From TPA_inf: Saccharomyces (taxonomy: Eukaryota): a DNA stretch of 64,000 nucleotides. The notes beneath the pieces were generated by a model. The model was not told the origin of the DNA. It was given only the letters and a program-made list of their open reading frames with translations, and ran no database searches. The stretch is from positions 32,001 to 96,000 of the forward strand of contig BK006942.2 in the NCBI GenBank assembly GCA_000146045.2, in the 5' to 3' direction. Position numbers and translations under genes: made by a program. Position 1 is the stretch's first letter, and every line of letters starts with the position of its first letter. Positions 571 to 6,983 of this stretch are shown here, one piece after another.

Positions 571-1717
571 GAAACTTTGTTTGTTGATTGAATTTTTTAT
601 TAATTGTTTGTACAATAAATAATTTCAATAATCAACAATTGAACGCTGCCTTTTTATACTAAATGATTCAGTAGAAGACGAACCTAGCGCAGGGAATACG
701 TCATGTATTTGATAGTAAGCGCCAAACCTATTAGGCAATAAAGTGTGACAAATTGGTAGCATTGATAGTTATTCCCAATTGACCCATAGGCTGTTGAAAT
801 GAAACCATCAGTATATGTTGAAACCTCAAGTGAGGCGTCAACCTCTAAGTGAGGCTTCAAGCTTCGCCAACTATTATATATGCCACATGACTGCAGGGTC
901 CTTATTTTAAGGAGCTAGCTGCAACGACTTTGTGCTGTAAAGGGGTGCAGCAGCAAATGTAGCCTATTTGCTCGAGGTTTTTCTTTCTTACGAGAATGCT
1001 AGCAATTCAAGATAGTACGTTGTAATATGATGCATTTCGGCACAATTATCCGAGAAACGGACTATTTCGGGATTATATCGATCCGAAATTCTCTGCGTCG
1101 AGCCGAATGCCAAGGAAAAAAGTTCAGAGAATGACTACAAACAGCCTTGGCGACGGCAAAAGTAAGCTTGGTAAGAATGGCTTGATCCACACGGTGATTC
1201 TTGTATCGGGTCAATGCATAATTTTGATTGTGAAAGGCGCAATTATTAAGGCTGCATTCTTTAGCTTGTCTTGACTCCTACCCGTCATCGTACAATCTCC
1301 ACATTAAAAAATATCACGACATTTATAAATCTTCTTCACACCGGATTAAACAAAAAAACTGTGTTAATCGGATCCGGGAGAAAATGCTAATATCTCCTTC
1401 TTGTTTGTGAAATGATGATAACTGGGCTGTTGAACGAAAATGAAACTTCTCAAATACACCTATTTATTAATAAATGTTAATTTATATTTTAAAAAAAGGT
1501 AAAAATTAAATGATCAGGTTTGCGATCCTGATTTCAAAATCATGGCTTGGATTATATCTTAGAGACGTATGGATTTCAAACAAATGCCTATTTGATTGAA
1601 TATTACAGATCTACATTATCTCTTGTACATAAAACATTATATAACAGACATATTGATATTAACGAATATTTTCGAGCCACCATTCATGAAAGCCTAGTTA
1701 ATGGATTTATGCGGTAT

Positions 1718-2686
1718 TCATTTCGTAAACTTGACATCGTGTGACCTTTCATTGACAGTCAACTGGAAGACATCTCCCCTAGCATAATGTCCGACAGGGT
1801 CAAGATCAAAGCGAGCTTCAGCAATCAAGTCAGTGTTAATTTCGGCGGTTAAAAGGCCCTCCTGCCCTAGCAATGGCCCTGCAATAATCTCTCCATAAGG
1901 ATCAATAATAACACTACCTCCATTAATACAGTTGTCGTCAGCAGATGGCCATCCAGGTAATTTTCTCTTACCTGTAGCTTGGTCAATAATCTCCCCAAAG
2001 CCCATTGCTGTCGCATCTGGCATGAACTGCACTGCACTAATCAAGAATAGACGACCTTCGTATGCAATATTTTTCATCACAGTCCTCTAAATAGGCCTAG
2101 CATCCACCGTTGGGGCACACCAGATCTCAACCCCTTTTTTATACATGGCGTATCTCAGTAGAGGCATCATGTTCTCCCAGCAGATAGCACCGCCAATCTT
2201 CCCAGCAGCGGTATCCACGACAGGCAGAGTCGAACCATCGCCTTGACCCCATATCAGTCTTTCGCCAGCTGTCGGCATCAGTTTTCGATGCTTCCCAACG
2301 TAGCCATCTTTAGGATCTATATAAACCATGGTACAATATAATGTCGTCCCATCGCGCTCTATACACCCCACACATAAGGATGCGTCGGTGGCCTTCGATA
2401 GTGCGCACAACTGACTAATTTCTGGATATTTCTCTCCGTTTCCGATCTCAATTGCTTCGGCAAGATACTTAGCATACTCCTCCCTTCCTTCTTGAAGACG
2501 GTAGCCTAGATAAACCCCAAAGTTCGATCCCTTTGGATAACCACCAAGAGTGGCTTCTGGGATAACGACCAACTTGGCACCAGATTCCTTGATCTCCTTC
2601 TCATATGACAAAATTTTTTTCAAGGTATCCTTAGTAGAGCCCGGACAAGAGCCGATTTGAAGGGCAGCAACAATGTGTTTCGCCAT
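1718..2686 (-). pseudogene. NIT1: Nitrilase split by an in-frame TAG: N-terminal 199 aa (YIL164C, 2087-2686) and C-terminal 119 aa (YIL165C, 1718-2077) in the same frame
   Basis: Carbon-nitrogen hydrolase sequence: [14 protein letters not shown]...[12 protein letters not shown]...GKHRKLMPT...ICWENMMPL. The TAG at 2087-2089 is in frame with the downstream segment (...DARPI * RTV MKNIAYEG...), and the C-terminal fragment (GGSVIIDPYGEIIAGP...) is contiguous. Confidence 0.85.
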
Positions 2687-2791
2687 TGTGGTTAACTAGA
2701 GGTAGCCTCGAAAAGTGATTGGCTAACCCTAAGTCATAATATCACCCTTTCTTATTGAAGAGCTTTTATTATTTATATACACTGCCCTTTA

Positions 2792-2798: not shown

Positions 2799-4883
2799 CG
2801 GAGGCCTGGGCTCCATTTTTTTTACGAAGCAAAAAAGATAGCTCATATTTCGTAAGCATTAGGCCAACTTTACTGATAACCGTTTTCAAATCGCGGTGGG
2901 ATTAATATAATGTGGCGTTCATAGTGAAATGTGGCTCCAAAGTATAAGCGTAAATGCGTTTGCTTATCGAACCGCAAGTAACTTGTAATTTCACCTCTAT
3001 AATTTCGAGCGGTTTTTAAGATACACCATGTTTCAAGTAACCACCTTTCGCCTTTTTCCTCTGTTATCGAACTTCCATCTGTAAAAAGTTCGCTTGCAGA
3101 AGAAAAAAGGCACTACACGGAAGAGGACTGATAATTAATGAAAATCAAGCTATGATCAAACAACTACTGGCTCTAATATATGGTTTCGGCTACATAATCT
3201 AATTGTCATATCTGTTATCTCGACACTCGTCTCTCGATAAACGAGTTCTTCACTGTTGCTAGGTGCAGTGGTCGGCCATAGTTATCCATACAAAATTCCA
3301 ATTTCTTACGCGCATAGCAGTCGATACATGCAAACATCTCGACTATTCTGGCGATAGCAGTACCAACAATCACCAGCACAAATTTTGTCACCTGTGCTTT
3401 GCTAGAGTTACTTCAGTACTAATTAGATTATAATATTTTGCAGCATTTATTGGTATAGAAAGAAAAGCTCGAGCACTACCAACTTTTATCTGATATACCG
3501 AAAAATGCATAAATATCTTCTCTAGTTTGTGCGTTTTCTTGTCGCCCTACCTCACAAAAGAGAAGTACTGATGGCTAATAATTGTTGGATCGATTCATTG
3601 TATCTCTTAAATGTCAACAGAGCATAAGTCAGACTCTTTGCCATTTTTAAAAAGCTGCGAAGGCGAACGTGACTACGGGGTGCGGGTTTTTGTATTGCTA
3701 ATGTAGCATGACAGCTTATCCAATGTTTTGTTGTGTTCATTCAAACTATTTTGAGCCTCACTTCAATTTTGTTTGACTACTAACATGGCAGCATGCGTCG
3801 TTTCTAGGTGCTAGCCAGGCTGTGAGAACGTAAAATTAGCCTATGTTCAACATTCTCTGCTTTTCAATGTCACTGTTCATTTTGTTACTATGAAAGTAGT
3901 TCGTCGCAATTTGTACTTTTCTTCGAAAGTCTTCTTTTGCAGTAGATGAAGTGTGTTCTGAGAAATTGATGCTTTCAAATGGCCTTAAAAAATTTTTGTA
4001 TCATAGCTAACAACATACTGTTGCGCCAGGGGAAGTGAAATCATGGTTGTATATTACAATAGCATTATGTGCATTTACCAAGTATGGAAAAGCGGAAAGT
4101 GTGAAAGAAGTTTATGAAAAAAGCGGAAAATAAAAAAAAAAAGTTTATTTTCCTGTGACTTCTGGGAAGCAGTTAGACCTCCTTCGCTGTATTCTTAGGT
4201 GCTATACCTCATTTCCACGATGGTAATAGACGATCAGTCTATTAATGCGCTAAAGAACGTAGAAAAGTTATTAACTGAAGAAGCTTTGCTAATGCCGTCG
4301 CACATTAAACGGCTAGACATTGCCTTGAATAGGAAGCCGAATAATCTACGAAATATCATGGAGCTTCAGGGCCTTGCATATACTATAGTAAAAAAAAAAC
4401 TAAGTTTTCCCCTGTAGTAAACAGGGAGATACCGTACGGAGGTCTGAATTCCCTACAGAAGTAGCTGTAAAAATTCAGAATTCGCAACAACCTATAATTG
4501 AGTTAAGTGCCTTTCCAAGCTAAAAAGTTTGAGGTTATAGGGGCTTAGCATCCACACGTCACAATCTCGGGTATCGAGTATAGTATGTAGAATTACGGCA
4601 GGAGGTTTCCCAATGAACAAAGGACAGGGGCACGGTGAGCTGTCGAAGGTATCCATTTTATCATGTTTCGTTTGTACAAGCACGACATACTAAGACATTT
4701 ACCGTATGGGAGTTGTTGTCCTAGCGTAGTTCTCGCTCCCCCAGCAAAGCTCAAAAAAGTACGTCATTTAGAATAGTTTGTGAGCAAATTACCAGTCGGT
4801 ATGCTACGTTAGAAAGGCCCACAGTATTCTTCTACCAAAGGCGTGCCTTTGTTGAACTCGATCCATTATGAGGGCTTCCATTA

Positions 4884-4898: not shown

Positions 4899-5252
4899 TT
4901 ACTCTGAACAGGAATAAAAAGAAAAAACCCAGTTTAGGAAATTATCCGGGGGCGAAGAAATACGCGTAGCGTTAATCGACCCCACGTCCAGGGTTTTTCC
5001 ATGGAGGTTTCTGGAAAAACTGACGAGGAATGTGATTATAAATCCCTTTATGTGATGTCTAAGACTTTTAAGGTACGCCCGATGTTTGCCTATTACCATC
5101 ATAGAGACGTTTCTTTTCGAGGAATGCTTAAACGACTTTGTTTGACAAAAATGTTGCCTAAGGGCTCTATAGTAAACCATTTGGAAGAAAGATTTGACGA
5201 CTTTTTTTTTTTGGATTTCGATCCTATAATCCTTCCTCCTGAAAAGAAACAT
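4899..5252 (-). CDS. YIL163C, 117-aa hypothetical ORF lying inside the SUC2 promoter (overlaps the TATA box and Mig1 sites)
   Basis: ATG-initiated 117-aa ORF, basic and low-complexity, with no recognisable domain. Its position matches annotated YIL163C. It may be a by-product of the long stop-free stretch upstream of SUC2. Confidence 0.3.
4941..4956 (+). promoter_or_regulatory. SUC2 upstream Mig1 GC-box site B (ATTATCCGGGGGCGAA), about -440 from the ATG
   Basis: AT-rich flank plus CCGGGG. This is the second classic Mig1 site of the SUC2 UAS region. Confidence 0.7.
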
Positions 5253-5384: not shown

Positions 5385-6983
5385 ATGCTTTTGCAAGCTT
5401 TCCTTTTCCTTTTGGCTGGTTTTGCAGCCAAAATATCTGCATCAATGACAAACGAAACTAGCGATAGACCTTTGGTCCACTTCACACCCAACAAGGGCTG
5501 GATGAATGACCCAAATGGGTTGTGGTACGATGAAAAAGATGCCAAATGGCATCTGTACTTTCAATACAACCCAAATGACACCGTATGGGGTACGCCATTG
5601 TTTTGGGGCCATGCTACTTCCGATGATTTGACTAATTGGGAAGATCAACCCATTGCTATCGCTCCCAAGCGTAACGATTCAGGTGCTTTCTCTGGCTCCA
5701 TGGTGGTTGATTACAACAACACGAGTGGGTTTTTCAATGATACTATTGATCCAAGACAAAGATGCGTTGCGATTTGGACTTATAACACTCCTGAAAGTGA
5801 AGAGCAATACATTAGCTATTCTCTTGATGGTGGTTACACTTTTACTGAATACCAAAAGAACCCTGTTTTAGCTGCCAACTCCACTCAATTCAGAGATCCA
5901 AAGGTGTTCTGGTATGAACCTTCTCAAAAATGGATTATGACGGCTGCCAAATCACAAGACTACAAAATTGAAATTTACTCCTCTGATGACTTGAAGTCCT
6001 GGAAGCTAGAATCTGCATTTGCCAATGAAGGTTTCTTAGGCTACCAATACGAATGTCCAGGTTTGATTGAAGTCCCAACTGAGCAAGATCCTTCCAAATC
6101 TTATTGGGTCATGTTTATTTCTATCAACCCAGGTGCACCTGCTGGCGGTTCCTTCAACCAATATTTTGTTGGATCCTTCAATGGTACTCATTTTGAAGCG
6201 TTTGACAATCAATCTAGAGTGGTAGATTTTGGTAAGGACTACTATGCCTTGCAAACTTTCTTCAACACTGACCCAACCTACGGTTCAGCATTAGGTATTG
6301 CCTGGGCTTCAAACTGGGAGTACAGTGCCTTTGTCCCAACTAACCCATGGAGATCATCCATGTCTTTGGTCCGCAAGTTTTCTTTGAACACTGAATATCA
6401 AGCTAATCCAGAGACTGAATTGATCAATTTGAAAGCCGAACCAATATTGAACATTAGTAATGCTGGTCCCTGGTCTCGTTTTGCTACTAACACAACTCTA
6501 ACTAAGGCCAATTCTTACAATGTCGATTTGAGCAACTCGACTGGTACCCTAGAGTTTGAGTTGGTTTACGCTGTTAACACCACACAAACCATATCCAAAT
6601 CCGTCTTTGCCGACTTATCACTTTGGTTCAAGGGTTTAGAAGATCCTGAAGAATATTTGAGAATGGGTTTTGAAGTCAGTGCTTCTTCCTTCTTTTTGGA
6701 CCGTGGTAACTCTAAGGTCAAGTTTGTCAAGGAGAACCCATATTTCACAAACAGAATGTCTGTCAACAACCAACCATTCAAGTCTGAGAACGACCTAAGT
6801 TACTATAAAGTGTACGGCCTACTGGATCAAAACATCTTGGAATTGTACTTCAACGATGGAGATGTGGTTTCTACAAATACCTACTTCATGACCACCGGTA
6901 ACGCTCTAGGATCTGTGAACATGACCACTGGTGTCGATAATTTGTTCTACATTGACAAGTTCCAAGTAAGGGAAGTAAAATAG
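5385..6983 (+). CDS. SUC2: Invertase (beta-fructofuranosidase), 532 aa
   Basis: [19 protein letters not shown] signal peptide, then [26 protein letters not shown] (GH32 NDPNG motif), RDP and EC catalytic motifs. The track ORF begins at 5001 only because no in-frame stop precedes the true ATG at 5385; an internal Met21 at 5445 also sits in the same frame. Confidence 0.97.

Follow-up and report, generated by a model that had tools for sequence, protein, structure and literature searches.

In the 64,000-nucleotide stretch of Saccharomyces DNA analyzed here (the window), the nitrilase gene NIT1 is cut by a single in-frame TAG, and we put the probability at roughly 0.93 that the window carries an S288C-type null or severely crippled NIT1 allele, the result of one young, segregating TGG-to-TAG change. 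The essentials of the NIT1 split in S288C have already been published (PMC1657058; PMC4207643; 10.1101/2025.08.15.670413). To this the present analysis adds DNA-level evidence on which codon is ancestral and how young the TAG allele is, together with its sharing by other strains and the presence of other disabling alleles. The 199-amino-acid product of the interrupted gene was identical to NP_012102.1, Nit1p of Saccharomyces cerevisiae S288C, in public protein collections, and the locus is the documented S288C NIT1 (YIL164C)/YIL165C split.

Translation of window positions 1715 to 2689 gave a single minus-strand frame of 322 codons, running from 2686 to 1718, with MAKH as its first residues and DVKFTK as its last, and closed by a terminal TGA (1720 to 1718). 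The sole internal stop in this frame was the TAG of codon 200 (2089 to 2087, minus strand), followed by an A, and the conceptual peptide across the break read ...VDARPI, stop, RTVMKNIAYEG.... A program-made list of open reading frames reported the gene as two minus-strand pieces, at 2087 to 2686 (199 amino acids) and at 1718 to 2080. Codons 1 to 199, which constitute NIT1/YIL164C, occupy 2090 to 2686. Within the premature stop (2087 to 2089) the derived base is an A at gene nucleotide 599 (a T on the plus strand, window position 2088), where the ancestral codon was TGG (Trp). Nine in-frame bases then follow (2078 to 2086, AGG ACT GTG), which encode R201-T202-V203 of the intact protein and, in the reference annotation, belong to neither ORF; YIL164C and YIL165C have been reported to lie 9 bp apart (PMC1657058). 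The first in-frame ATG beyond the TAG, at 2077, is the annotated start of YIL165C, which comprises codons 204 to 322 plus the TGA (1718 to 2077, minus strand) and is identical to residues 204 to 322 of a 322-amino-acid S. cerevisiae protein (P0121); in the TAG allele it is the untranslated C-terminal rest of NIT1. Retranslation thus upheld the original prediction of one continuous frame broken only by this TAG and free of frameshifts, including its peptide, its coordinates, and the A after the stop. One paper (PMC4520285) calls the NIT1 lesion of BY a "frameshift mutation"; the sequence has a nonsense substitution and no frameshift.

Both pieces matched the CN_hydrolase profile PF00795, the N-terminal piece at profile positions 2 to 171 of 256 (E = 2.1e-34, 119.5 bits against a cutoff of 23.2) and the C-terminal piece at positions 189 to 255 of 256 (E = 1e-7, 32 bits). 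Together they cover one CN_hydrolase domain, and this domain-wide match places the product in the nitrilase superfamily. When the joined sequence was searched against a database, 322-amino-acid S. cerevisiae proteins matched at 99% identity, followed by a graded series through other Saccharomyces, Lachancea, Candida-clade yeasts, and bacteria. Origin of the two halves from different paralogues, a weakness that the original prediction had itself named, is ruled out, as both match one and the same 322-amino-acid protein and supply complementary parts of PF00795.

The catalytic Glu-Lys-Glu-Cys residues of the superfamily correspond to E44 (in PEA), K135 (in HRK), E142, and C169 (in CWEN). All four were invariant in an alignment of 20 sequences and all lie upstream of the TAG, so that at the sequence level the Glu-Lys-Cys triad and the second Glu are in place. 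Among solved structures, Arabidopsis thaliana NIT4 (PDB 6i00, E = 3.6e-80, residues 18 to 315) came closest to the reconstructed 322-residue protein; next among the PDB matches were Nit6803, several cyanide dihydratases, and further nitrilases. The nearest relatives are thus characterized nitrilases of branch 1 rather than amidases or branch 10 Nit proteins. The best NCBIfam match was a Nit6803-family nitrilase, at 151.6 bits against a cutoff of 502.6; because all NCBIfam matches fell below threshold, no specific equivalog can be claimed and Nit1 lies outside the Nit6803 equivalog. We file the product as a branch-1, NIT4-like nitrilase. A literature search for work on yeast Nit1 as an enzyme, or on its substrate, returned nothing specific.

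Compared along their full length with yeast Nit1, nitrilases of Pseudomonas and Dickeya (P0060, P0068, P0085, P0087, and others) showed 57 to 61% identity, and for some bacterial homologs at this level the source records give the name cyanoalanine nitrilase. Proteins of Candida and Scheffersomyces, at 59 to 62% identity, were as close to Nit1 as the bacterial ones. This closeness may indicate either unusually strong conservation or a transfer between kingdoms at some time in the past of this clade of nitrilases.

The polarity of the change at codon 200 follows from the relatives. Position 200 was Trp in at least 90% of the 20 aligned sequences, which covered all Saccharomyces species, distant yeasts, and the Pseudomonas and Dickeya nitrilases, and W200 was present in the 322-residue proteins of S. 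paradoxus, S. mikatae, S. kudriavzevii, and S. eubayanus. Within S. cerevisiae, P0121 differed from the conceptual protein of the window only by having Trp in place of the stop at position 200. This allele was found on 179 contigs, a number that, like all contig and block counts per protein given here, mainly reflects how often laboratory strains have been resequenced and is not a population frequency. The cluster of full-length proteins (cluster 1) held 80 distinct sequences, and intact 322-amino-acid alleles are common in S. cerevisiae. At the DNA level, gene nucleotide 599 was an A in the window and in at least 10 other assemblies encoding the exact 199-residue product (L001 to L010), and a G at eight full-length S. 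cerevisiae loci, at three S. paradoxus-type loci (L019 to L021), and in S. mikatae (L022). Since the outgroups have TGG, TGG is ancestral and the lesion is a derived G599A transition that turned TGG into TAG. Codon 200 is therefore a sense codon in many other S. cerevisiae strains and in S. paradoxus, as the comparison proposed with the original prediction was meant to establish.

The haplotype that carries the TAG is short and little changed. Across the 969 nucleotides of NIT1, the 10 TAG carriers had zero or one difference from the window, and no second disabling lesion (stop or frameshift) was seen in any of them. The closest TGG alleles differed from the window at 2 of 969 nucleotides, the causal G599A and a synonymous change at nucleotide 678. 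In 4.7 kb of flanking DNA, however, the carriers differed from the window by 6 to 109 single-nucleotide polymorphisms (SNPs) and 2 to 9 indel events, and the span identical to the window around the TAG measured 0.9 to 5.4 kb. Because their flanks diverge, the carriers are distinct strains and not resequenced copies, with a young, short haplotype in common. Judged from these alignments, the TAG is a single young nonsense mutation that segregates among S. cerevisiae strains. One lesion, intact alleles in the same species, and a sense codon in outgroups are the marks of a polymorphic (unitary, recent) pseudogene, and all were found. The change had been predicted to be recent and probably strain specific. 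With carriers free of further lesions and intact alleles two nucleotides away, recency stood; specificity held only in the sense that the TAG is polymorphic within the species, as a stop private to S288C is ruled out by its presence in at least 10 other assemblies with different flanks.

Three substitutions were seen among the TAG carriers, two of them nonsynonymous, downstream of the stop, and at conserved residues. S258N (gene nucleotide 773, window position 1914), in carriers L007 and L009, replaces a Ser that is invariant across yeasts and bacteria, and A291P (gene nucleotide 871, window position 1816) was found in carrier L006. These two changes may hint at relaxed constraint on the untranslated part of the gene, although the events are so few as to be anecdotal. 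A separate observation concerns locus L019 (GCA_029990665.1, an S. cerevisiae assembly, locus positions 1501 to 2469), the protein of which was identical to P0139, named S. paradoxus Nit1 by its source and distant from the window protein by 13 amino-acid differences. The NIT1 of L019, at a locus close to the subtelomere, is a candidate for introgression from S. paradoxus.

The same clusters also contained shorter proteins, and tracing these led to at least five more alleles that disable NIT1 in other S. cerevisiae assemblies, each of them with TGG at codon 200. In order along the gene these were an added A in an A7 run at gene nucleotides 61 to 67 (window position ~2620 to 2626; L023 to L026, on 22 contigs, among them one from an older assembly made independently, GCA_000190215.1), an added G after nucleotide 317 (window position ~2370; L030), an added A in an A6 run at nucleotides 546 to 551 (window position ~2136 to 2141; L027), loss of an A at nucleotide 613 (window position ~2074; L028), and C627G, which turns Y209 into a stop (window position ~2060; L029). 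Homopolymer indels found in a single assembly may be assembly errors; the added A at 61 to 67 and the two nonsense alleles (at W200 and Y209) look solid. This series suggests that NIT1 may have been lost repeatedly in S. cerevisiae while sister species keep the gene, and it offers a hint that the nitrilase could be dispensable in many S. cerevisiae niches. A stronger version, in which the six disabling alleles represent recurrent, independent inactivation across S. cerevisiae lineages through relaxed selection or through selection for loss in human-associated niches, is tentative, and we consider it rather unlikely as it stands. If it were true, what is being lost would be a nitrogen-scavenging or cyanide-detoxifying enzyme, and the S288C TAG would be one case of a wider trend of gene loss rather than an isolated accident.

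Readthrough, whether programmed or leaky (as might occur in [PSI+] cells), could in principle let S288C make useful full-length nitrilase, and it would fit the undamaged frame that follows the TAG in the window; that the mutation is young, however, suffices to explain that intact frame. A programmed readthrough signal should also be conserved, yet a stop at codon 200 occurs in no relative outside the TAG haplotype, the sister species and many strains having TGG, and this lack of conservation counts against readthrough. The base after the TAG is an A, as readthrough might have it, but the full context (TAG AGG ACT) departs from CAR-NBA, the consensus that Namy et al. reportedly described in 2001 for the bases after yeast stops that are read through. 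Near-cognate insertion at UAG is said to yield Gln, Tyr, or Lys (Blanchet in 2014 and Roy in 2015), and any basal readthrough would then put one of these residues, and not the nearly invariant Trp, at position 200. Although the sensitivity of NIT1 mRNA to NMD is independent of the TAG (PMC1657058), which could be taken to favor readthrough, published profiling points the other way. Albert et al. (2014) found by ribosome profiling of BY/RM hybrids that BY terminates at the TAG and RM translates the whole ORF, with YIL165C footprints ~11-fold lower (log2 ratio of −3.5) from the BY allele than from the RM allele, a reduction that the authors attributed to premature termination (PMC4207643). Likewise, 40S/80S profiling in a 2025 preprint on what it terms the "NIT1-YIL165C pseudogene" located the 40S peaks for start and stop within the first ORF, with the stop at that ORF's end (10.1101/2025.08.15.670413). 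Useful readthrough is consequently very improbable, and the low-level readthrough that had been entertained in the original prediction found no support in conservation, 3' context, or published profiling.

An equally slim chance attaches to YIL164C and YIL165C being two separately functional genes, with the C-terminal piece translated from the ATG at 2077 and serving a role of its own. That ATG does lie 9 nucleotides past the TAG. Deletion of YIL165C is also reported, in its SGD description, to cause a mitophagy phenotype, a possible sign that the locus has some function in S288C. The C-terminal piece is nevertheless the last third of one domain (PF00795 positions 189 to 255) and is identical to the corresponding residues of intact alleles. 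Moreover, the same BY profiling data show strongly reduced footprints over YIL165C, which is termed a "dubious" ORF (PMC4207643), and YIL164C/YIL165C is a single bicistronic transcript (PMC4302112). As these and earlier papers state, RM, other strains, and other species have a single nitrilase ORF in place of the two (PMC4207643; PMC4302112; PMC1657058).

Less probable still is an old pseudogene that is decaying throughout the species and of which the window happens to show just one lesion. The different disabling mutations in other S. cerevisiae assemblies and the nonsynonymous changes at conserved residues past the stop in some carriers (S258N and A291P) are what such decay might leave behind. 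The former occur on TGG backgrounds, however, and are thus independent events rather than accumulated decay, and the TAG haplotype is 2 of 969 nucleotides from intact alleles, which are common, with no additional stop or frameshift in 10 carriers. A sequencing or assembly error in the window, for which there was no specific support, is the least probable explanation of all, as the TAG is present in 10 independently assembled genomes and has been experimentally mutated and profiled in S288C-derived strains (PMC1657058; PMC4207643).

The reading that we favor is thus loss of function by a young nonsense mutation, and nothing in the sequence speaks against it. A G-to-A transition changed the conserved Trp200 codon from TGG to TAG, ribosomes terminate there, and a 199-residue fragment is made. 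This fragment keeps the catalytic-motif residues but is without the last 123 residues (200 to 322), which make up over a third of the alpha-beta-beta-alpha fold. Because the alignment to 6i00 spans residues 18 to 315, the segment lost in the TAG allele is integral to the fold; in helical nitrilases, the C-terminal segment also takes part in oligomerization, and it falls in the removed region. The fragment is therefore predicted from sequence to be enzymatically inactive, even though all catalytic-motif residues are upstream of the stop, which leaves a small chance of residual function. The 122 codons beyond the TAG, with the internal ATG annotated as the start of YIL165C, are in effect a long 3' untranslated region of a single transcript. 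The intact gene has meanwhile been retained in sister species and in many strains.

The fate of the transcript involves more than the internal stop. Guan et al. (2006) described YIL164C/YIL165C as a "disabled ORF" and its mRNA as a direct NMD target; the NMD sensitivity persisted when the TAG was changed to TCG or TGG, and a putative upstream open reading frame (uORF) in the 5' untranslated region was proposed (PMC1657058). The 2025 preprint distinguished a short transcript induced in poor nitrogen and a 5'-extended, uORF-bearing repressive transcript, both NMD sensitive (10.1101/2025.08.15.670413). In the window, a two-codon uORF (ATG ACT TAG; 2729 to 2737, minus strand) lies 51 nucleotides upstream of the NIT1 ATG, and the region from −130 to −392 relative to NIT1 (upstream to window position ~3078) contains six further ATGs, each opening a short ORF. 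The element TATATAAATA was also found upstream of NIT1, at 2770 to 2779 on the minus strand. The two-codon uORF is a candidate source of the stop-independent NMD sensitivity, and together with the other upstream ATGs and the TATATAAATA element it is consistent with the published NMD sensitivity through uORFs and 5'-extended transcripts (PMC1657058; 10.1101/2025.08.15.670413).

The neighborhood agrees with this identity. Upstream of NIT1 on the opposite strand is a 532-amino-acid invertase (5385 to 6983, plus strand; Glyco_hydro_32N/C), a glycoside hydrolase family 32 enzyme that corresponds to SUC2 on the yeast map; the program-made ORF for it, starting at 5001, overextends the 5' end. Downstream of NIT1 is an MFS_1 transporter gene of 542 amino acids, the 5' part of which lies at window positions 1 to ~558 (minus strand) and the rest beyond the window start. 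This transporter is also length polymorphic, being called as 531, 466, 455, or 298 amino acids in some strains.

A "synthetic construct" record (L012, CP125382.1), the protein of which is named "YIL164C [Saccharomyces cerevisiae synthetic construct]," was colinear with the window over 5,686 nucleotides and differed by only 27 substitutions. The substitutions look like designed changes, and the colinearity is consistent with an S288C-type backbone. Two synonymous recoding blocks fall within its NIT1, at locus positions 3288 to 3315 and 3573 to 3594 (window positions 2372 to 2399 and 2093 to 2114), and four further substitutions are at window positions 5019 to 5025. Codon 200 of this record (locus position 3599, window position 2088) is TGG, not TAG or TAA, and the nitrilase ORF is back to 322 codons; a literature search for the reason behind TGG-200 in this synthetic-chromosome record found no paper.

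For users of the reference genome, the practical point is that two ORFs (NIT1 and the "dubious" YIL165C) stand where the species has one nitrilase gene. Since one gene is split in S288C/BY, functional-genomics data on either ORF in that background refer to an allele that is null or truncated. For premature stops and NMD, the locus also offers a convenient natural test case, and it has already been used as one. Its importance beyond annotation hygiene is small.

Three known systems frame these results. The "disabled ORF" pair YIL164C/YIL165C of S288C has the same TAG, 9-bp gap, 199-amino-acid product, and SUC2 and MFS transporter neighbors as the window, with no difference at the locus. A. thaliana NIT4 (6i00), a beta-cyano-L-alanine nitrilase/hydratase, has in common with Nit1 three motifs (PEA, HRK, and CWEN) as well as a Trp at the position of W200, whereas the Nit1 allele of the window ends at residue 199. 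YIL168W/YIL167W (SDL1) and other disabled ORF pairs of S288C likewise have one in-frame stop in one NMD-sensitive mRNA (PMC1657058). In YIL168W/YIL167W, the internal stop itself triggers NMD (PMC1657058); in NIT1, by contrast, an additional mechanism involving a uORF or a 5'-extended transcript is indicated (PMC1657058; 10.1101/2025.08.15.670413).
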